Part shown: piece by piece, positions 2,312 through 61,257 of the stretch
How positions within the stretch are numbered: the first letter of the stretch is position 1
How the letters are laid out: the number at the start of each line of letters is the position of its first letter
DNA from: a phage
Sequence record: PZ445439.1
DNA: 64,000 bases
Strand: one strand, 5' to 3'
Made by a program: the position numbers and the translations under genes
The notes under the pieces: model-generated
Seen by the model: only the letters and a program-made list of their open reading frames with translations
What the model was told of the DNA's origin: nothing
Database searches by the model: none

Positions 2312-3636
2312 TTGATTTCCTCTAAATCTTTAGTGTATTCTGTAACTACATCAGTAGTTTTCCAATATTCGTTTTCTTCTTTTTTAGCTTTAGCTTCTTC
2401 AGCAAGTTTCTTTGCTTCGTCGGAAGTCATATGAAAAATGTTCATTCCAACTAGTTTATCAACATAAGAAGAATACATATCAATTTTAGAAAGTTCTTCG
2501 GTCAGTTCTTTACGAGTTTTACCTTGTACAACAATTTCACCTGAAATTACTTTCTTAATGAAATGTGCCTTGGCAAAGGCTAAACGAAATGCCGATTCAG
2601 TTTCTTTGATTTTGTTATCAATTCGTTTTTGGACATAAGTTTTACGAACTTCAACGAAGTCTTTGATTAAATCAACTACGTTATCGTAAACTTGTAGTTT
2701 TCCTTTCTCATTAATAACCGTAATATTCTGAGAACGACGCTCAATCAACCCGAAGTCTTTCATAATTTTTGCATGGCGTTCTTCTTCATTATCGCTCAAA
2801 GAATATTCTTTGCGGAATTTAACTTTGAATCCAAAACCGTGCTCACCGCAAGCATCATCCCATGTAATGAAGCCTTTATCTTCAAGTGGGTCTAAGATTT
2901 TACTCACATAAGTTTCACGATCATACTTATATGGAATCTCAGTGATATGCATTTGAGTTCGTGAAGTAAACTTATATGTTCCACGAATTTCATACTGCCC
3001 ATCAATTTCAACAACTTCACCACGAAATTCTGGGAATTCTACCTTCGGTTTAGTTACTCTCTTTCCTTGAAGAGCTTGCAGTACAGCTTTCTTAACAGAA
3101 GAAACGCTATGAGGAAGAATGTAAGTTGCATAACCAGTTGCAATACCGGAAACGCCATTAAGAAGAACAGTAGGAATAATAGGCAAATAGAAAGCAGGCG
3201 GAATGTGTTCTTTATCTTGATGTACCGGAGCATATTCAGTATCTTTATATACGTTATAGAAATTTTTACTTACACGAGCAAAAATATAACGACTTGCTGC
3301 TGCTTTTTGGACGGTACGAGAACCAAAGTTTCCTTGACCATCTAACAGAGGAAAGTTATTATTCCAAGTGTTAGCCATCAAAGCACCTGCGTCTTGCGCA
3401 GAGTTTTCACCATGATGATATCCAAGGTCCGCTACACCACCTGCAATAGAAGCGAGTTTGTGAAACTTATCTTTATTTCCTCGTGCCAAATCAAGAGCTC
3501 GAGCAATAACAAATCGTTGAACTGGCTTAAATCCGTCAATCATATTTGGGATAGCACGATTTTCAACCGTGTACATAGCATAAGCCAATGCTTCATTATC
3601 AATGATACTTTTTAAATCGCGATTATTCAGTTGCAT
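2308..3636 (-). CDS. 52: DNA topoisomerase II medium subunit gp52 (GyrA-like)
   Basis: 442 aa (same as T4 gp52); GFKPVQRFV...ARALD and active-site-region motifs of type II topoisomerase A subunit. Confidence 0.9.
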   Translation of the reverse strand: MQLNNRDLKSIIDNEALAYAMYTVENRAIPNMIDGFKPVQRFVIARALDLARGNKDKFHKLASIAGGVADLGYHHGENSAQDAGALMANTWNNNFPLLDGQGNFGSRTVQKAAASRYIFARVSKNFYNVYKDTEYAPVHQDKEHIPPAFYLPIIPTVLLNGVSGIATGYATYILPHSVSSVKKAVLQALQGKRVTKPKVEFPEFRGEVVEIDGQYEIRGTYKFTSRTQMHITEIPYKYDRETYVSKILDPLEDKGFITWDDACGEHGFGFKVKFRKEYSLSDNEEERHAKIMKDFGLIERRSQNITVINEKGKLQVYDNVVDLIKDFVEVRKTYVQKRIDNKIKETESAFRLAFAKAHFIKKVISGEIVVQGKTRKELTEELSKIDMYSSYVDKLVGMNIFHMTSDEAKKLAEEAKAKKEENEYWKTTDVVTEYTKDLEEIK

Positions 3637-4478: not shown

Positions 4479-5987
4479 ATTAATTTCCTCTAAATTATTT
4501 TCTACTCCAAGGCCGCATGAATACACACGGCCATTAAATTAATCGTCGCAGTCGACGCTCAATTCCCAAAACTCTTCTACGGTATAAGTTTCAGTATCAT
4601 TTTCAATACAGAAACGTTCATTACTGTTATTTGCTAAAGTAGCGTTAACTGTCATTTTTTCGATAGTGCTCTTAAGAGGTGAAATACGAATTAACTGATC
4701 ACCGTTATCTAAACAAAAAATTTCACCAACTTTTACATCTTTAAAACTTTTCATAATTCACCTCAAGGAGTATAAAATCCGAATGCAGTTGTTGACCATC
4801 CCATCCAATGCGGAAAATTTGCGCCAATGTAAAACATAAGAATATAAAACCAACCGCTCAGCAAATTCATTATTTTACACCATTCCAAATTGTTTCAACC
4901 ACGGATTTTAAACCATTCTGGTGAATATCAATTCCGACTACTGTCATCAAATAGATTCCAACTACAACTGAACCTAATGCAAAAATCAGCATGAAAATGA
5001 ATAAAGCCGGAAAAATATTATCGAAAAACCATTCAATAAATGTAAAAGCACTGCGTTTACGCTTCATATTTTCCTCACATAAATCCAAAGTAAGCGTTTA
5101 ATACATCAATCATTAAAACGATTGGGAATATACTCAAAACTACTAGTATTATAACTACATTCCATATAGCTTTAACAATCTTTTTCATTTTCTGTTCCTC
5201 CGTAGTTGATAGGGTAATAGTACCACAGAGGAACAGTCTTGTAAACAACTTTTTTAAAAATATTCGTAATAAATGTGAATACCAATCACTACTGCCGAAA
5301 CTTGCGCAACCCACCATGCACAAGCAATAAGTACAGAATTCAAAATTTTCATAATAACCTCATCACAAAAGTAAATGTTAAACAAATTAATGGAATACTA
5401 ATTAACCAAACAAAACACCACCATAATGAACTCATAATTCAATCTCAGCGATTTTCATTTCATTACTATTAATAGCCTCTTTAAGACTATCTAAAAGAAT
5501 TACATTCCAGTGGTCATTCATATGACCATTAACTAAGCGTGTAATTTCTTCAGGAGTTGAAAAATAAGGCTGATCAGACTCCCAGTGCGATAATCCTAAG
5601 CGGGTATAAATCATACCTTCATCATCACTAGAATATTCAACTGACACAAACTCATCAGTTGTTTTATGTTTAGCGTAATAAAATTTAAATTTCATTTTAT
5701 TCAATAATCCGCTAAAAGATCGACGATTGCATCACGAAGACATTTATTCGCAATACGTTTAAGAGCAATTTCAGTTTCAGGCGCATTTCGAATAATCATT
5801 GAATTCAATTCAGCTTCGGCAAACTGAAGTTCTTTGACTAATTCAGCTTTATATTTTCCTTGACCTTTCTTAGCTTTTGCTCGTTTTAATTCAGCTGTAG
5901 TAAACATTTTGTTCTCCAAATCCGTATCAGTTGATAGGGTAATAGTACCACAGTCCTTGTGGTATGTAAACCATTTTGTGAAAATTT

Positions 5988-6545
5988 TTAAATGGAAAGA
6001 TACCATCCGTTGTAGTTACTTTTTCTTACAACCTTACGAAGGTCTTCTCTATCACCAATGAACTTCGGAGTGTACTGGATGACACCTGGATGAATTTCTT
6101 TAGTGTTGAATATAATTATACAGTCTGCGACCTGATGATTCAGAATGGGCCCTAGATTTATTCCAGAACCGTATGGATACTCTCCACTGCATCCTGTTGT
6201 TACCGAAATCCAACGAGAGTCAGTTTGATGTGTTTTGACTTCTACTCGAAGCCCGCAGTATTTTGGATGTGCCAAAACATCCCATGCATATGTATACGGG
6301 TCATCGACATCTTCTTGACCTTTGTTAACATATCCACTTAACCAATCTGCTACAACATACTCGGCATACACTGCGATACGGCATCTTTCGATAACTTCTG
6401 CCTTATCCTGATTTGGATTTTGCTTTAAAGAATATCTCGCAGTATCAGCAATTTTGACCTTCATTTCACTAGTCAAGTCACCGTTCGATAGGGTAAATGT
6501 CGGAATCTGAAATAGTCTCTGTAACCCCGGATTCGTTTTCTGCAT
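5988..6545 (-). CDS. denB: DenB-like endonuclease IV
   Basis: 185 aa, same length and map position (between ndd and rIIB) as T4 DenB. Confidence 0.55.
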   Translation of the reverse strand: MQKTNPGLQRLFQIPTFTLSNGDLTSEMKVKIADTARYSLKQNPNQDKAEVIERCRIAVYAEYVVADWLSGYVNKGQEDVDDPYTYAWDVLAHPKYCGLRVEVKTHQTDSRWISVTTGCSGEYPYGSGINLGPILNHQVADCIIIFNTKEIHPGVIQYTPKFIGDREDLRKVVRKSNYNGWYLSI

Positions 6546-6826
6546 TTAGACTTTCCTTTTTACCACTAAGATAAGCGTTATACACTTTAAGAGTACCATA
6601 GTAAATTCGATCATTTTCATCTAAAGAATTATGATCAAGTTCATCGAGTTCCTTTTTATCCATGACTATAACATCATTACAGTAAAGAAACCCAAGTTTT
6701 TCGTGACCAAACTCAAATTTATTGCAGTACACAATGTTAGCGTGATGATTTCCGTGTAGTTTAATCTCTTTTATGTCGGAATCACCGATATTCATACAAT
6801 AAATCATAATTCACCTTAAAACAAAA

Positions 6827-6838
6827 GGGCCGAAGCCC
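6827..6838 (-). terminator. UUCG-tetraloop hairpin at gene end
   Basis: minus-strand GGGC-UUCG-GCCC then U-rich tract. Confidence 0.5.
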
Positions 6839-7033
6839 TTATTTAAATTGTTCAATTCTTTTCTCTAGACATTCAGCATAAGATTTCATTGAGATAAACT
6901 GTGAAAGCAGTAATTCTTGTTCAACTTCATTAACCGTTAGAAACTTCGTGCTTTCTAAAAATTTGCCCAGTGCATTAATTTTGAGCATTAATTGTTCGTA
7001 TTCTTCTTTTACTCGTGCTTGATAACCTAGCAT
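6839..7033 (-). CDS. hypothetical 64-aa protein flanked by duplicated gene-end/hairpin repeat
   Basis: ORF ends ...EQFK-stop-UUCG hairpin, the same 3' end as rIIB. Confidence 0.35.
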   Translation of the reverse strand: MLGYQARVKEEYEQLMLKINALGKFLESTKFLTVNEVEQELLLSQFISMKSYAECLEKRIEQFK

Positions 7034-7065
7034 AATTTTCCTTAGTATGATAAGGGCCGAAGCCC

Positions 7066-8004
7066 TTATTTAAATTGTTCAGTAACGTCTTCAACTACTT
7101 CGTATTGGCAGGTACGCATTTTAGCATCGTTGTAATCAATCGGAATTGATACTACATCACGAGGATGTACTTTAACTTTTACAACTCGACTGGTTGAACT
7201 ACCGAAGTGACGAATATAAGATTTAGAACACACATGCAGACCGCGAGAACAAGTTTGTGTATCATCATCATTCACACGAGTACGTGGCATTTTAACTACT
7301 TTACCCGGACTGTTATCAAAGGTATTTGAGTGACAGTCAAAGTAATTGCTGCGAACTACTTTCCAAGCATAGAAGTAACCATCTTCTGTAATTTCAATAT
7401 CGTTTGCTACCAAGAAATCAAAGAGTCGAGATACCGCTTTTTGGCTCGGGTTTTCTAACAGATTTTCCAAGAACGGAAAATAGAATTCAAAGTTTTCGCC
7501 TTTTTCCATCGAATCAAGAATACGATCAACCAAACCAGACCGCAATTCAATATTTTGATAGAACAAGCTTCCACCTTCAATTCGAACATCACCGGAAATA
7601 TATTTTTCAACGGCGCGACGAACATTAATTTTTTGTGCTGCTTCTTCCAACTTATCAGCTACGAGCAGATTAAGAATTTCCTGGAAGTTTGAATGAGTGT
7701 TAGGAGTTGCGTTATAAGTTACACCATCAACAGTAATTGAAATGAATTTTTTAGAAGCATTCCAAATGATGTCAGATTTAGCAACTGGAGCAATAGCTAC
7801 ATCGCTATTAACTTTAACTGTAATGTCACCGCTAATAGTAACTTTAGAGCGTTCAGCTTCTTCAGCATTTTTTAAAACACGACGGATTGTGTCAACCGAT
7901 ACACCCTTCCAATCAGCCAGTTCCTGCTGAGTATAATTACCACTTGAATACAGTTTAACGATTTCAGCTTGTTCGTTTTTGGTCAGGCATTTAATATTGT
8001 ACAT
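7066..8004 (-). CDS. rIIB: rIIB rapid-lysis protein
   Basis: 312 aa as in T4; directly downstream of rIIA on the same strand. Confidence 0.9.
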   Translation of the reverse strand: MYNIKCLTKNEQAEIVKLYSSGNYTQQELADWKGVSVDTIRRVLKNAEEAERSKVTISGDITVKVNSDVAIAPVAKSDIIWNASKKFISITVDGVTYNATPNTHSNFQEILNLLVADKLEEAAQKINVRRAVEKYISGDVRIEGGSLFYQNIELRSGLVDRILDSMEKGENFEFYFPFLENLLENPSQKAVSRLFDFLVANDIEITEDGYFYAWKVVRSNYFDCHSNTFDNSPGKVVKMPRTRVNDDDTQTCSRGLHVCSKSYIRHFGSSTSRVVKVKVHPRDVVSIPIDYNDAKMRTCQYEVVEDVTEQFK

Positions 8005-13165: not shown

Positions 13166-14181
13166 ATTATTCCTTAAAGTGTACTTTCAACATCTGATAC
13201 AAGGACCATGCCTGTTCATTATTTTCAATAGTAACTTTCATGACAGGAAATTCTGTGAAATCTTCTATTTGTTCTTGCTCTTCCTGCTTTTGCTCTTCGG
13301 ACGCTTGATATGGATTTCCAACTTCGTCAAAGAACTCTGCTTCATTCGTGGAGAGCCAGATAAAGTTTTCATCAAGGATATCACCGCCTGTTGCGTATCC
13401 AACCGTGCCAGTAGATGTCACAATTTTAGTAGGACGACTGAGATGGTCAACATCTAAAATTTTAAAAGGTTCCATACCTAAACGTCGTGCGTAGATTCCG
13501 TTATCAATATGGTCTTTAATAAAAGCTTCTTGAGCTTGTTTATTTTTAAATTGATACCATTTATTAACTTCAAATCTAATAGCCATTAATAAATTTCCTT
13601 CCAGTAAGTTGTACCGTCTTCAGTGATTTCACGGAATACACCATAAATCGGTTGTTTATCACCAACCTTTTCATACACATAAACCGAAGTCAAGTGAGTA
13701 AACTTGATGGTGTGTTCCTTTTGAACTACTACCAAATCTGGATCGAATAATACATCTTCAAATTCGTCATTAGTGCAATTCTGAACAATTTTACGTTTCA
13801 TTACAATTTCCTCATTAATTGAACAGTGGAGCGATGCGTTTCAGAAGAGTAGCAGCACCTTTAGCGAATTTTACATCATGAAAAACAGTTTCTTCTTCCG
13901 TTACAACACGAGCTTTAATGTTTTCACAATCCCAATTTTTGCGAACAATCTTCAAAAGCTGCAGTAAATCTTTACATTCAGCAATATCGATAACACATCC
14001 ACGAGAATCTTCCATTATCGCACGATAACCGTAAGCCATACCATAATCATTGAAAGATTGCTCGATGATAATTAAATTTTCCATTTTATTCTCCAAGTTG
14101 TTTTCTGTATCAGTAGTTGATATTGATATAGTACCATAATCAACTACTGATGTATATAGTTTTATGAAAAAATTTTAAACT

Positions 14182-25363: not shown

Positions 25364-25531
25364 TTTTACTCTTCTTTTTCTTTAGATTCCTCTTTTTTCT
25401 TTTTAGGAATCTGTTCAGGACCTTTATTTACTACAGCGCCTGACGTTGTTCCAGTAGAGATATTTTCAGGATTACCACCTGAATCTCCAGCGACCATATC
25501 TTCTTTGATAAATTCTTTATATGTTTTCATA

Positions 25532-25888
25532 TTAACCTCTATTCATAAAAGCATTAAAAATTTGGTCATCAATAGATGGTGCAGTAATATTTTCTGCATC
25601 ATTTAGCAAATCATTAATTTCATCAGATAGCATAACACATGTACCTTTATTTCCTGTAATTGTTACTGCACAATTACGAACGTTTTCTTTATCAAATTTT
25701 AGGTTAATATTTTCGTAGTGAAAATCCTTTAATGCCGAATATATCTTTAAAATAAAATTGTCTTTTACTACAATAAACCCAACCTCACTATTAAAACGTG
25801 GTTCATGGAAACTGTAATAAACCTTTTCATCTATAAAATCGTATGAAATTTTTTCCATTTTTAAATATGAAAATTCAGAACTATACAT
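25532..25888 (-). CDS. hypothetical protein (61.1/61.2 region), shares C-terminal module with next ORF
   Basis: 118 aa ending IDDQIFNAFMNRG; about 40 nt of near-identical DNA at the 3' end shared with 25890-26537. Confidence 0.4.
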   Translation of the reverse strand: MYSSEFSYLKMEKISYDFIDEKVYYSFHEPRFNSEVGFIVVKDNFILKIYSALKDFHYENINLKFDKENVRNCAVTITGNKGTCVMLSDEINDLLNDAENITAPSIDDQIFNAFMNRG

Positions 25889-25889
25889 A

Positions 25890-26537
25890 TTAACCTTTAT
25901 TCATAAAAGCATTAAAAATTTGATCGTCAATAGAAACTTTTACTTTAGGCTGTTCTTCAAACGGTAATTCATATCCACATATTACAATTTTGTGATCGAT
26001 ACCAAAATACACAGAAGCAATATGATTAATATTATTTTCAGTGAAATCTAAATCAACATCAATATCTTTTTGACTAACGCTCAAAGGATAATTAATACGA
26101 ATAATTCGATTATCTTTAACAAAGATTCCACCGACATACTCTGTGTTGCGTTTAAAGTTTACACGTTTCCTAAATGAAAAATATTCAGGTTCTTTATGAG
26201 CCCGACTCATAGGACACAATGAGTAGCTAGAATAAGAGATGTCAAATCCTACACCTTCAATATGAATATGAGCCAACGTGTCATGATTAAACCAATTATA
26301 ATCATATGCCAAATCCATTATATTGTAATATGTGAAAGGCACCGGATTAACATCATATGTTGTACCTTTAAAATCTGCCCAGGCAACGATTTCGTTATCT
26401 TTAACAATTACAAAAATTGTGCCAATAAGATATCCACGGTTATTTTCATCAGGTGTTATATTATAACATTGTGCATCAGGAAATTTACCGTATTTAAACG
26501 GTGGATTTTTGTGCATATAATAAATCATATTATTCAC
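25890..26537 (-). CDS. hypothetical protein (61.1/61.2 region)
   Basis: 215 aa ending IDDQIFNAFMNKG. Confidence 0.4.
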   Translation of the reverse strand: MNNMIYYMHKNPPFKYGKFPDAQCYNITPDENNRGYLIGTIFVIVKDNEIVAWADFKGTTYDVNPVPFTYYNIMDLAYDYNWFNHDTLAHIHIEGVGFDISYSSYSLCPMSRAHKEPEYFSFRKRVNFKRNTEYVGGIFVKDNRIIRINYPLSVSQKDIDVDLDFTENNINHIASVYFGIDHKIVICGYELPFEEQPKVKVSIDDQIFNAFMNKG

Positions 26538-33042: not shown

Positions 33043-33187
33043 ATCTGTATCAGTAGTTGATAGTTGTATAGTACCACAGAGGAACAGTCTTGTAAAACAG
33101 TTTTGTGAAAAATTTTTTAGGGAATTCTAAAGGTCCAGAATCATCTGTTTTTCATAAGTATAGATTTATATTACTTGTATGAAAAAG

Positions 33188-47015: not shown

Positions 47016-48923
47016 TTTCACCTCTTAGCTCAATTCATAGATCTATTATATCATAATATTTGAAGATCTATCTTAAAGCATAGAGAATATCAGTTATCTA
47101 AGTAAACAGTATGCTTGGAATACTTTCTCCATCATCTTTTTAAATTCATGAATATCTATATAATGACTAGTTAGATCAGCATGATATAAAAAGTCTAAAA
47201 ACTTTTCATGTGTACTAACATATTCACTTTCATTTAATTCAGAAACATGGCTTTCCCAATATCCAACACCAGTCTTATTTGGGAAAAATGAAATTTTCAT
47301 GTATTGGTCAACATAGAAAATGCCATAATTTTCAATAGTAATAGAAATATTAATAAATTTCATACATTCATCAACTTAGCCGCTTCAAGAGCTGCATCTA
47401 GTGAATCAAATTGGTCAACGTATTCAATCAATTCGCCATAATTGGCATATAACCACCATTGGCTAAATTCATACTCAAGGATGAATCCGTTTCCTTCAAT
47501 TTGAGTTAAACCAATGCCATTTGTATTTACTTCATATCCAGCAAGACGCAAATCGTTAATAAGAGCTTCGTTCATAATTATACCTTAGTAATTTTCAGGT
47601 CTGCAAATTTTTTCTTGCGTTGATTTTTCATGCGACGAATAGTTTTATCGGAAATTTCATGCTTTTGATAAGCTTTAGATTCTACACCAAAAGCTTTAAC
47701 ATCAAATTCTGACAAGATATATTGAACCAACAATTCACGGACAGTATTGCGTCCAATCTTCTGATCATTCTGTTTCATCGTCTGATGAAGCTCTTTTTCC
47801 CATTTATCCAAAATTTGAGGAGTTACAATATCGCCTTTTTCTAGCAAAGAAACTACTTTATCATATGCGTAAGAATTGATGGCGTTTTTAATTTGAATAG
47901 TCATACATTATCCTCAATTGCGTTAAAATTTTATTATCCAAAAAGGGCCGAAGCCCTTAGCTAAACTTTTTGGCACCCTTCCAGCCTTCATACATCATTG
48001 CGGCTGATATTAATATTGCTCCTGAGCAACTTGAATATTTGTGATTCCAAAACCAGTTTAGAAAAACTTCGTCATCAATACCTTGTGCTATCATATTTTC
48101 AAAGAACTGACGACGAGCTTCGGCAATTCGCTGCGATAATTTAGATTCAGGATTCATTTAAATTTTCCAATTACCGTTTTCATCAATGAATTTAATCCAG
48201 TCATTTACTGACCACTTAGTTGTATCGCCTTTTGGAGTAACATTTAAAGTATATAGCCCTTGCTTAAAAAGCATTCGTTTGATATTCATATTTTCCTCAG
48301 ATGTAACGATAACACTCGTTTGATTTACGTTTAGCAACTCGTTGAGAAGTATTATAATCAAAATCATCGTCAATGTAAACTGATTTTTTCAACTTTCTTA
48401 CTTCACCACGTAATTGGCGATTTAGCTCATCTTTAACTTCTGAATCAATACCTTTCATTCTACGCCATTTATCTGAGCGAAAAATGTTTTCAACCATATC
48501 TTTATGACTTACCCCATCAGGAGCTTTACGCTTTCCGAAATAGTCATAATCACGAACTTTCAAGTCTTTACGACGATACGTTTTACCCATGGAGTTTAAT
48601 TTCCTTAGCAACTGAACTAAATGCAGCACGATCGCAAATCATGCGTTTATGTAACTTGAGTATAATATAGCAAACTTCAAAACTATTTACATGAGTAACA
48701 CGAACAGCATTACCATTAATGAGATAATACTGTCCCTTTTTAATTTCTTTATCAACCATAACCATATCAATTCCTCAAAGGTAATTCATATGTTAATAAT
48801 ACCACGGTTTGAACTTGTTGTAAACAACTTTGTGAAAAATATTTCAGGGAATGATAAGAAAGGAACGATAGCTTAGAATGGTAATATACAGAATGTAAGA
48901 AAGAAAGGCCCAGAGGGCCCATC

Positions 48924-59730: not shown

Positions 59731-60194
59731 TTTCTGTTCCTCCGTAGTTGATAGTTGTATAGTACCACAGAGGAACAGTCTTGTAAACAACTAAAAGAAA
59801 CTTCTTTCACAATTTTTTCCACTGAACCAGGCGCTCACTGCTTTCTTAGTCTCGGGAGCAGTGTTATCCATAAACCATTCAAAGGCAGCCTTTTTATGAT
59901 TCTGGAGGGCTTCTCGGGCTTTAATCTGCTCACGGTCTATTAACACTAACATATGAGCCTTTCTTGTCACCAGGGGCTTCTTATGATTTTTTGAATACTC
60001 CCAATCATTTGTCCATCGCATTGTCGTTGCGAATTGAAGTACAGCTTCTTTAATTTTAGTTTCGTAAATTTCACGAGCCTTTGAGTATAACATTATTACC
60101 TCCATTTACCAGTTTAATTCTAGTCATCTTTTTGATGGCAGTCCATATAATCTATTTCTGAACTGCCTTTTTGTCTTAGAAGGTCTCTTATGAA

Positions 60195-61175
60195 TTATTT
60201 CAGAAGAGTAACCTCAGCAATTTCTTCCCAACCGTTTTTGTCGGTCATAATAAAGTCAGCAAGATAAAGAGCAGTACGCAGTGAAACATTGCGTAAACGA
60301 TTAACATTGACTTTCATCCATGATAATGCTTTATAAGTTTCTTCATCAGAAAGACCGCGCTTTTGCATCATGTCAGTTGAAAGAATAACATCTTCAACCC
60401 TGACCATAATTTCTTCATTAGTGTGAACACCTAAATCTAAATAAACTGAGCGGGACACTAATGCTTGTAAATGTGGAGCAAGTTTAGTACCACGGTCTAA
60501 TTCGCGGTCAATGTCAACGTTTGTGATAAAAACAATCGTTCCTTTAAATTCAAACTCACGCTCAATGCCTTTTTCTTCTAAGTAAGAAGATGCAGTGCTC
60601 CAGCAGACTTTACGGGTCTCTCCGGTGTCTAGAGCAGCTTTTAGAAGATTAAGAATGTCCATATCAGAGAAAACATCCACATCATCAATCAAAAGGACAG
60701 AATTCTCTTCACGATTATTCCAGAGCTGCTCATAAAGACCGATACCAGAGATTTTACCATTAATGCTTTTATACTCAATGTATCCAACATCATTTGCTTT
60801 ATTTAAAGCTTTATCTAAAGAATACGTTTTACCAATACCTGCCGCACCAGAGATAATTAATGAACGAATGTTTCCGTTAATAATACCATTCGTCATCATT
60901 CCCATAACATTAAATCTTTTATTAATGCGGGTTTTCATATCTTCATATGATTCTTTAACTTCTTCAACTTTTACACCATCATATGAAATATCTGATTTGT
61001 AAACCCAAACACCGCGACGCTTACCGTCAATTTCAACAAAAACTTTACCATCTCCTTGTGCATCCACCGGAGCATTATCTGGGAACCATTCGCCTAAGAG
61101 CTCAAAAGTTCCAGAGATTTCTTTACCGAAGTAGATACCCTTATTGATAGTTACAGTTTTCATTTTATTCTCCAA
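60195..61175 (-). CDS. P-loop NTPase (AAA-like ATPase) of unknown function
   Basis: 326 aa; Walker A GAAGIGKT, Walker B VLLIDDVD; early promoter upstream. Confidence 0.5.
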   Translation of the reverse strand: MENKMKTVTINKGIYFGKEISGTFELLGEWFPDNAPVDAQGDGKVFVEIDGKRRGVWVYKSDISYDGVKVEEVKESYEDMKTRINKRFNVMGMMTNGIINGNIRSLIISGAAGIGKTYSLDKALNKANDVGYIEYKSINGKISGIGLYEQLWNNREENSVLLIDDVDVFSDMDILNLLKAALDTGETRKVCWSTASSYLEEKGIEREFEFKGTIVFITNVDIDRELDRGTKLAPHLQALVSRSVYLDLGVHTNEEIMVRVEDVILSTDMMQKRGLSDEETYKALSWMKVNVNRLRNVSLRTALYLADFIMTDKNGWEEIAEVTLLK

Positions 61176-61179
61176 ATCC

Positions 61180-61240
61180 GTATTAGTTGATAGTTGTATA
61201 GTACCATAAAGCTTTATGCGTGTAAACAGTTTTGTGAAAA
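61180..61240 (-). promoter_or_regulatory. early promoter upstream of the P-loop ATPase gene
   Basis: same conserved cassette (UP-like A/T tract, GTTTAC, TGG-TACTAT). Confidence 0.45.
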
Positions 61241-61257
61241 ATTTTTAAAATAAAAAG

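Follow-up and report, generated by a model that had tools for sequence, protein, structure and literature searches.

Identical 3' ends of rIIB and denB.1 in a T4-like phage: a rare gene-end allele probably produced by short-patch copying

The first UUCG tetraloops to be recognized were those of T4 mRNA (Tuerk et al., 1988, as cited in PMC4371310). For the promoter-bearing elements termed PeSL, a model of excision and insertion has been described in T4-type phages together with modular shuffling (PMC2839356; Comeau et al., 2014, PMC4122927), and in the T4/PST pair the promoter of these elements is a sigma-70-like early promoter, TTTACW-N17-TAYWAT (PMC2839356, PMC4122927). Recombination of T4 in the laboratory at homologies of 6-10 bp is mentioned by Srikant et al. 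(2022, PMC9391042) and in work cited therein (Wu et al., 1991, 2021). UUCG hairpins, short-homology recombination and modular shuffling at regulatory repeats are already known, and the arrangement that we describe here, in which two neighboring genes close with similar stop-and-hairpin modules, is itself present in T4. What the locus adds is modest: a polymorphic series of gene ends that runs up to full identity, a patch resembling gene conversion that changes a C-terminal residue of the unrelated neighbor denB.1, and the presence of denB.1 in some genera but not in others at a junction with a single hairpin.

We analyzed a stretch of 64,000 nucleotides of phage DNA (sequence record PZ445439.1; hereafter the window), which belongs to a Tequatrovirus (T4-like phage). 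By nucleotide comparison, the region of interest shares 97% identity with Escherichia phage JoYop, and about 480 further records match it at 90-95%. The features described below lie on the minus strand, and the gene order is that of T4, namely rIIB - denB.1 - DUF7418 ORF - denB. The rIIB gene (7066..8004, stop codon at 7066-7068) encodes a protein of 312 aa ending in ...VTEQFK; it matches the RIIB lysis inhibitor family phrog_609 (E = 6.9e-111) and is 97-99% identical to the annotated rIIB of JoYop, T4 and other phages. The spacer that follows (7031..7051), as read from the letters, contains the Shine-Dalgarno sequence UAAGGA and runs to the ATG of denB.1 (7031-7033); its variant is ATCATACT in the window and AACT in most relatives. 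The 64-aa ORF at 6839..7033, ending in ...RIEQFK, is T4 denB.1 and is annotated as such in T4, T2, T6 and RB14. Its product passes the threshold of Pfam family PF21825 (crAss001_48-related protein; 68.8 bits against a cut-off of 24.8, residues 4-61) and matches phrog_774 (E = 1.2e-21). It is a small helical protein. A search for related solved structures gave nothing significant, and in a literature search the name denB.1 appeared in one genome-description paper only. In many records the gene is mislabeled as an 'endonuclease'. Beyond denB.1 and its hairpin, the terminator scan placed a U-rich tail, UUGUUUUAAG, at 6815..6824. It is followed by a DUF7418 ORF of 109 aa (6478..6807; phrog_2237, from the ORF list and profile matches), which overlaps the start of denB (endonuclease IV; 5988..6545, from the ORF list and the annotations of relatives), the end of the rIIB-denB interval.

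rIIB and denB.1 close with an exact direct repeat of 30 nt, AAGGGCCGAAGCCCTTATTTAAATTGTTCA, found at 6825-6854 and 7052-7081 by a repeat search and a DNA search of the window, with a spacing of 227 nt. In 100 dinucleotide-preserving shuffles there were 0 matches to it with 3 mismatches tolerated. Read along the coding (minus) strand, both copies have the sequence T GAA CAA TTT AAA TAA GGGC-TTCG-GCCC TT. Copy 1 (7052..7081, minus strand) forms the end of rIIB and consists of the codons GAA CAA TTT AAA, the stop TAA and a C(UUCG)G hairpin at 7052-7067; copy 2 (6825..6854, minus strand) forms the end of denB.1, with the same four codons, TAA and a hairpin at 6825-6840. An earlier note on this DNA had stated that rIIB and the 64-aa ORF both end with EQFK, a stop and the same hairpin, which is borne out by the ORF list and the predicted fold. 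The 29-mer that it quoted does occur twice, at 6826-6854 and 7053-7081, but the positions it gave were about 9 nt off for the first copy (~6817-6845) and about 1 nt off for the second (~7054-7082). Some 17 of the 30 nt (TAA, GGGCTTCGGCCC and TT) constitute a generic module: GGGCCGAAGCCC was found 6 times in the window, and position 47945 carries TAAGGGCTTCGGCCCTT, with the same TAA-hairpin-TT context as the repeat. The part particular to the rIIB/denB.1 pair is the 13 nt of coding sequence TGAACAATTTAAA. Because the rIIB and denB.1 proteins have no detectable similarity (BLASTP gave no alignment between them, and paralogy was rejected), the shared tail is not left over from a common ancestor of the two genes. 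A search of the region against Rfam matched no family and returned only sub-threshold snoRNA noise.

In the centroid structure both copies fold as AAGGGC-UUCG-GCCCUU, with the UAA stop running into the stem, and both belong to the class of C(UUCG)G tetraloop hairpins. Such hairpins, with a perfect stem of at least 4 bp, number 12 on the window's minus strand, the one transcribed early, vs. 1 on the plus strand. GGGCUUCGGCCC occurs six times in the window, and other genes there also have TAA set directly against an identical hairpin. Hairpin 2 (6825-6840, 3' of denB.1) runs into the U-rich tail and received a minus-strand terminator-scan call, AAGGGCTTCGGCCCTT TTGTTTTAAG; its ortholog in phage G2133 is annotated as 'terminator' (ARNOLD). 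The combination of a G+C-rich stem-loop and a U tract that defines an intrinsic terminator was found at hairpin 2, in copy 2, only. Hairpin 1, 3' of rIIB, has no U tract and drew no scan call; it is followed by UUAUCAUACUAAGG in the window and by UUAACUAAGG in most relatives, and the ribosome-binding site of denB.1 lies 10-14 nt beyond it. Judged by these sequence features, the most likely role is intrinsic termination or attenuation for hairpin 2 and, for hairpin 1, that of an intercistronic 3'-end/stability structure or a weak attenuator. A literature search found no RNA 3'-end mapping for the rIIB/denB.1 locus. In the T4 reference, both hairpins probably contain single-base errors. A gene-60-like translational bypass (an AAA take-off codon, UAA, the UUCG hairpin, an SD-like sequence and an AAA landing codon before the denB.1 AUG) was considered and set aside, as such features are found at T4 junctions generally.

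The exact 30-mer is the normal end of rIIB, found in 395 phage records at 402 places in all. Only 7 records, from six phages, carry it twice (JoYop, G2133, Sf23 with two records, Sa45lw, ESh29 and KMB42), and a reading of the sequences confirmed all 7. Independent divergence of the rIIB and denB.1 ends was seen in about 98.6% of relatives (two copies in only 7/395), and copy 2 of the window is a rare allele of the denB.1 end, identical to the rIIB end and shared by only 7 Tequatrovirus records out of about 497. For most relatives, 2-3 substitutions and an A/T spacer of 4-6 nt set the denB.1 end apart from the 30-mer. We read the tails of 25 sequences letter by letter and counted the other records, out of roughly 497, through BLAST summaries; scans of IMG/VR and of metagenomes covered 8 loci each, two of them incomplete. 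Among the 25 sequences we distinguished at least 10 denB.1-tail alleles, from the T4 type to the rIIB-identical type with intermediates between. T4 and the metagenome contig L033 have the tail ATT GCA CAA TTC AAG TAA AATAAA GGGC. The form ...AAA TAA AATAA GGGC was read in five loci (L004-L006, L026 and L027), and ...TAA ATAA GGGC in T6, in L007 and, with GAA, in a48. Tails without the spacer combine GCA with TTC in PhiZZ30, GAA with TTC in SHFML-26 and BCPEco_001, GCA with TTT in ECML-363, and GAA with TTT, which is the rIIB end, in the window phage and the six phages named above. All four combinations of GCA/GAA and TTC/TTT were thus seen within 13 nt of the denB.1 tail; each variable site of this tail has the rIIB state among its alleles, and the rIIB-identical allele occurs on 3 different denB.1 haplotype backgrounds. 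The denB.1 tail is hypervariable, whereas the rIIB tail is almost invariant. Common to both genes in every Tequatrovirus read is a QFK-stop followed by GGGCUUCGGCCC, with an optional A/T spacer between them.

A comparison of G2133, which has the rIIB-identical tail, with L033, which has the T4-type tail, revealed 3 differences in about 450 nt of flanking sequence vs. 3 substitutions and a 6-nt indel in 18 alignment columns of the tail. At the divergence of the flanks, about 0.13 events would be expected in the tail, vs. the four observed, and each of the four brings the G2133 tail into agreement with the rIIB end of that phage, 223 nt upstream. Sf23 compared with PhiZZ30 and ECML-363 gave the same pattern on a smaller scale. 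The G2133/L033 pair displays the clustered differences, near-identical flanks and intact donor of a gene-conversion tract, a pattern that allelic import could also leave. On these alignments, the difference between the two points to a short templated patch, resulting either from a fresh ectopic conversion or from allelic import from a co-infecting phage. The suggestion in the earlier note that the duplicated 3' ends serve as a site of exchange agrees well with the hypervariable denB.1 tail, its four codon combinations and the four-event patch in this pair.

The explanation that we favor, and hold to be probable, is that rIIB and denB.1 carry two standard gene-end modules, and that their perfect identity is a rare allele generated by short-patch templated copying of the rIIB end onto the similar denB.1 end and then spread by homologous exchange. 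The starting point would be two ordinary T4-type modules, each made of the final codons with their UAA stop and a C(UUCG)G hairpin of extra stability, that close adjacent and unrelated early/middle genes; the partly similar ends of rIIB and denB.1 already present in all Tequatroviruses would provide the seed. The copying itself would be ectopic gene conversion or minihomology recombination, with the rIIB end, about 225 nt upstream, as the donor. In denB.1, the patch would convert GCA to GAA (Ala to Glu), TTC to TTT and AAG to AAA, and would remove the 4-6-nt spacer; at a later step it would be passed between phages by ordinary homologous exchange. Several points speak against copying as the origin. 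Both tail alleles circulate, and the G2133/L033 pair could show the mobility of the patch, its origin aside. Two of the three substitutions are at synonymous two-fold sites (TTC/TTT and AAG/AAA), which toggle between two states only, and the spacer can be lost by slippage in TAA(A)ATAA. A single copying event is also insufficient for SHFML-26 (GAA and TTC, no spacer) and a48 (GAA with a spacer), which need more than one event.

The alleles differ by only three substitutions, two of them at two-state synonymous sites, and one slippage-prone indel, and this proximity favors a convergence without any template, in which point mutations and slippage acted on a 3' end under weak constraint, possibly with selection for the same optimal context of stop codon and hairpin. 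The existence of all intermediates, discontinuous ones included, fits such a process, as does the placement of TAA against an identical hairpin at other genes of the window. Untemplated convergence, however, leaves it to chance that the Ala-to-Glu transversion hits precisely the rIIB codon, that the rIIB state is among the alleles of every variable site, and that four events fell within 18 nt between near-identical genomes where about 0.13 were expected; we regard this route as unlikely.

We also read the rIIB-DUF7418 interval in 12 further lineages. Among the genera compared, 'FK-stop' in both genes was seen in Tequatrovirus only. Elsewhere, rIIB ends in ...VTEQF* (Gaprivervirus), ...VTEQFANEYKY* (Dhakavirus) or ...VTELFAE* (Mosigvirus), and denB.1 of other genera ends in ...RIARF*, ...RIQRF*, ...RISYFGE* or ...RINRF*. 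Because the double 'FK-stop' is unique to Tequatrovirus, these endings suggest that sequence was copied between the rIIB and denB.1 ends at least once before, in the stem of the genus. It could then be argued that one gene end was copied once in that stem and simply retained, the exact-repeat allele being original and all other tails derived. The QFK-stop and GGGCUUCGGCCC in both genes of every Tequatrovirus read are in line with such an ancestral duplication, and the terminal Lys of both genes, unique to the genus, makes at least one old copying event likely. Retention of the exact repeat since then is nevertheless improbable in our judgment, given that few records (7 of about 497) have the identical allele, that it sits on three backgrounds interleaved with non-identical alleles, and that the four clustered events of the G2133/L033 pair, within near-identical flanks, fit a recent patch better than long retention.

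The earlier note had proposed that denB.1 is a cassette inserted by recombination at a terminator hairpin. The interior of denB.1 (197 nt, at least 80% coverage) was found in 496 records and an adjacent 197 nt of rIIB (at least 90% identity) in 497; at the protein level the counts were 496 for denB.1 and 494 for rIIB. When a synthetic denB.1-deletion junction was used as a query, the 60 best matches were all in two pieces, spanning about 500 nt, and no deletion junction was among them. denB.1 is fixed in Tequatrovirus, and because of this (496 vs. 497 records, with diverged ends) a recent insertion is refuted within the genus. The footprint of an insertion, namely presence and absence in close relatives and a repeat in all carriers, was lacking (496 vs. 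497; 7/395 double), and the rIIB-denB interval of the relatives showed independent divergence of the two ends with no presence/absence polymorphism in Tequatrovirus, the outcome that the note itself had named as speaking against its proposal. Thus, although direct repeats bracket exactly one small ORF, a single hairpin stands at the junction in lineages without denB.1, and PeSL-type insertion of mini-circles has been described for T4-type phages (PMC2839356, PMC4122927), a recent insertion of denB.1 at the rIIB terminator hairpin with the 30-nt repeat as the duplicated target is highly improbable, since 496 of about 497 Tequatrovirus records contain denB.1, four other genera have it in the same place, about 98.6% of carriers have an imperfect flanking repeat, and the 60 best matches included no deletion junction.

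On the scale of the subfamily, what survives of the cassette idea is that denB.1 is an optional single-gene unit at a UUCG-hairpin junction. The gene is present in Dhakavirus (JS98, ABTNLS3), Gaprivervirus (RZ), Kanagawavirus (Q7622, PEi20) and Winklervirus (Virsaitis27), in the same position and with 44-57% protein identity; it is also present in the unclassified Yersinia phage P8, the junction of which matches RZ, in Klebsiella phage Clarke_MM3 and in three IMG/VR contigs (L008-L010). It is absent from Mosigvirus (RB69, moskry), from the unclassified LF82-1, in which the locus is near-identical to that of RB69, and from Karamvirus PG7 and Klebsiella phage Roth20. In all five of these phages one UUCG hairpin with a U tract lies between rIIB and the DUF7418 ORF, and the DUF7418 homologue comes directly after this rIIB hairpin. 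Where denB.1 is present, the hairpin follows rIIB only in Dhakavirus, Gaprivervirus, Kanagawavirus and Clarke_MM3, denB.1 only in L008-L010 (in which the rIIB stop overlaps the denB.1 start, TAATG), and both genes in Tequatrovirus and Winklervirus. denB.1 has been lost, or was never gained, in a few other Tevenvirinae lineages, with one hairpin kept there. Because denB.1-bearing genera surround Mosigvirus, loss would be the more parsimonious reading for that genus.

The modules were also compared with PeSL elements. Copy 1 has a promoter-like match, TTTAAA-16-TATCAT (9/12), with the hairpin between the boxes. This match is at chance level, with 10 such sites observed in the region vs. 7.2 ± 3.0 in shuffles, and it is restricted to the ATCATACT variant of the spacer. 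Copy 2 has no early-promoter match. The window does contain a family of early-promoter repeats, the counterpart of PeSL, at 2051, 5192, 5917 and elsewhere, with the copies nearest to the locus at 5180-5267 and 5905-5992, and neither copy of the 30-nt repeat falls into the early-promoter repeat families D1-D3. The modules share with PeSL the intergenic stem-loop beside variable ORFs, the variable gene here being denB.1, which has a hairpin on either side and occurs in some genera but not in others. Membership of the modules in PeSL was rejected, as the early-promoter component is missing.

Elsewhere in the window, the adjacent paralogues at 25532-26537 are 36% identical overall, and their last 14 codons, together with the stop and the start of the next gene, are 94% identical at the DNA level. 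This pair hints that homogenization of gene ends is not unique to the rIIB/denB.1 locus.

The locus provides a small natural example of how a T4-type gene junction is reshaped, in which a short exchange seeded by a hairpin spills into coding sequence and alters a C-terminus. The junction that exchanges patches is also the junction at which the small gene denB.1 comes and goes between genera. The results also serve as a warning against taking a perfect repeat around an ORF, on its own, as evidence that the ORF was recently inserted. Going further, we raise tentatively, as a doubtful but possible generalization, that promoter-less modules of a stop and a UUCG hairpin act as general handles for recombination and conversion in T-even phages, a minimal analogue of PeSL that would both overwrite the last codons of neighboring genes and supply the breakpoints for excision or insertion of a single gene, here denB.1. 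If so, protein C-termini would change as a side effect of the homogenization of a regulatory element, and the allele with the perfect 30-nt repeat would represent a pre-deletion state with a raised rate of excision. If such behavior were general, the 'modular shuffling' described for PeSL would extend to promoter-less modules, and deletion-prone phage alleles would become predictable.

With respect to the described systems, the two hairpins resemble the intercistronic C(UUCG)G hairpins of T4 in their C:G-closed UUCG loop, their short G+C stem and their position on the transcribed strand just past stop codons. The hairpin itself is no different from the typical T4 form; the locus departs from it in that the four upstream codons are also identical between two neighboring genes. 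The likeness to PeSL lies in direct-orientation intergenic stem-loop modules on either side of a small, non-essential ORF within a plastic region, and in the occurrence of the ORF in some lineages where others have a single module, as excision between modules would be expected to leave. In contrast to PeSL, the modules here are promoter-less, their shared letters reach into coding DNA, and denB.1 shows no presence/absence polymorphism among close relatives. As in minihomology recombination of T4, short direct repeats lie a few hundred bases apart in a non-essential early region; the outcomes described in PMC9391042 are deletions and tandem amplifications, whereas the outcome that we infer is a non-reciprocal patch with constant copy number. 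Finally, the near-invariant donor (the rIIB end), the variable acceptor, the variants that tend toward the donor and the clustered multi-site differences within otherwise identical flanks are all reminiscent of concerted evolution by gene conversion. Unlike the paralogues in which concerted evolution is described, rIIB and denB.1 are not paralogous, and the seed of the exchange would be a regulatory hairpin and a few codons.

Within Tequatrovirus, the gene content of the rIIB-denB interval varies at the gene adjoining denB rather than at denB.1. The 109-aa DUF7418 ORF (window 6478-6807), which lies between denB.1 and denB and overlaps the denB start, is found in many Tequatroviruses. In the T4 reference sequence (NC_000866, here L001, 3160-3215), it has shrunk to an in-frame internal-deletion remnant in which MNIGDSDIKE is joined to SLNAENES.... 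The DUF7418 ORF is therefore polymorphic for presence and absence within the genus, whereas denB.1 is not. The denB.1 product, a helical protein of 64 aa that belongs to PF21825, lacks a nuclease signature. Many GenBank records of relatives (e.g., ON528739, OR539221, MT515755) nevertheless label it "endonuclease", a designation that seems to derive from the name of the gene, "denB.1".

Comparison of the rIIB-denB.1 spacer (window 7031-7051) with that of relatives revealed two forms, of which CCCTTAACTAAGG occurs in most phages and CCCTTATCAYAYTAAGG in the window, its close relative JoYop, T6, and two other sequences (L003 and L007). T6, L003, and L007 combine the longer form with a mutated loop that reads CTCCGG or CTTTGG instead of CTTCGG. 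The junction was also compared in three IMG/VR contigs from outside Tequatrovirus (L008-L010), where rIIB is 51% identical. In these contigs (about 885-1130), the stop codon of rIIB and the start of denB.1 overlap as TAATG, the sole hairpin comes after denB.1, and its stem is flipped, being GCCC-UUCG-GGGC compared to GGGC-UUCG-GCCC in Tequatrovirus.

Both hairpins are one base short in the T4 reference (3228-3240 and 3455-3467), that of rIIB being without one G (GGCTTCGGCCC) and that of denB.1 without one C (GGGCTTCGGCC). The two bases are present in other T4 isolates (T4T, KJ477684, OZ209023) and in nearly all relatives. Their absence from the reference probably reflects G+C compression errors of old gel sequencing, or else strain variation.

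Beside the rIIB/denB.1 case, the window contains a second homogenized gene-end module, located in a pair of minus-strand paralogous genes of 118 and 215 aa (25532-25888 and 25890-26537). The paralogues adjoin each other and lie a short distance upstream of the primase gene, gene 61. Their overall identity is only 36%, and the two copies of a 49-nt repeat (25528-25576 and 25886-25934) are 94% identical. The repeat consists of the last 14 codons (SIDDQIFNAFMN[R/K]G), the stop codon, and the ATG of the following gene.

A further repeat family on the minus strand, with members of 74-88 nt (2051-2124, 5192-5265, 5917-5990, 14103-14176, 33043-33116, 48771-48844, 59734-59807, and 61173-61246), corresponds to T4 early promoters. 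These repeats cluster in the ndd-denB plastic region, adjoining the rIIB/denB.1 repeat. In several members, the promoter hexamers flank an inverted repeat, an arrangement also found in the PeSL-type (promoter plus stem-loop) cassettes described in the literature for T4-type phages.
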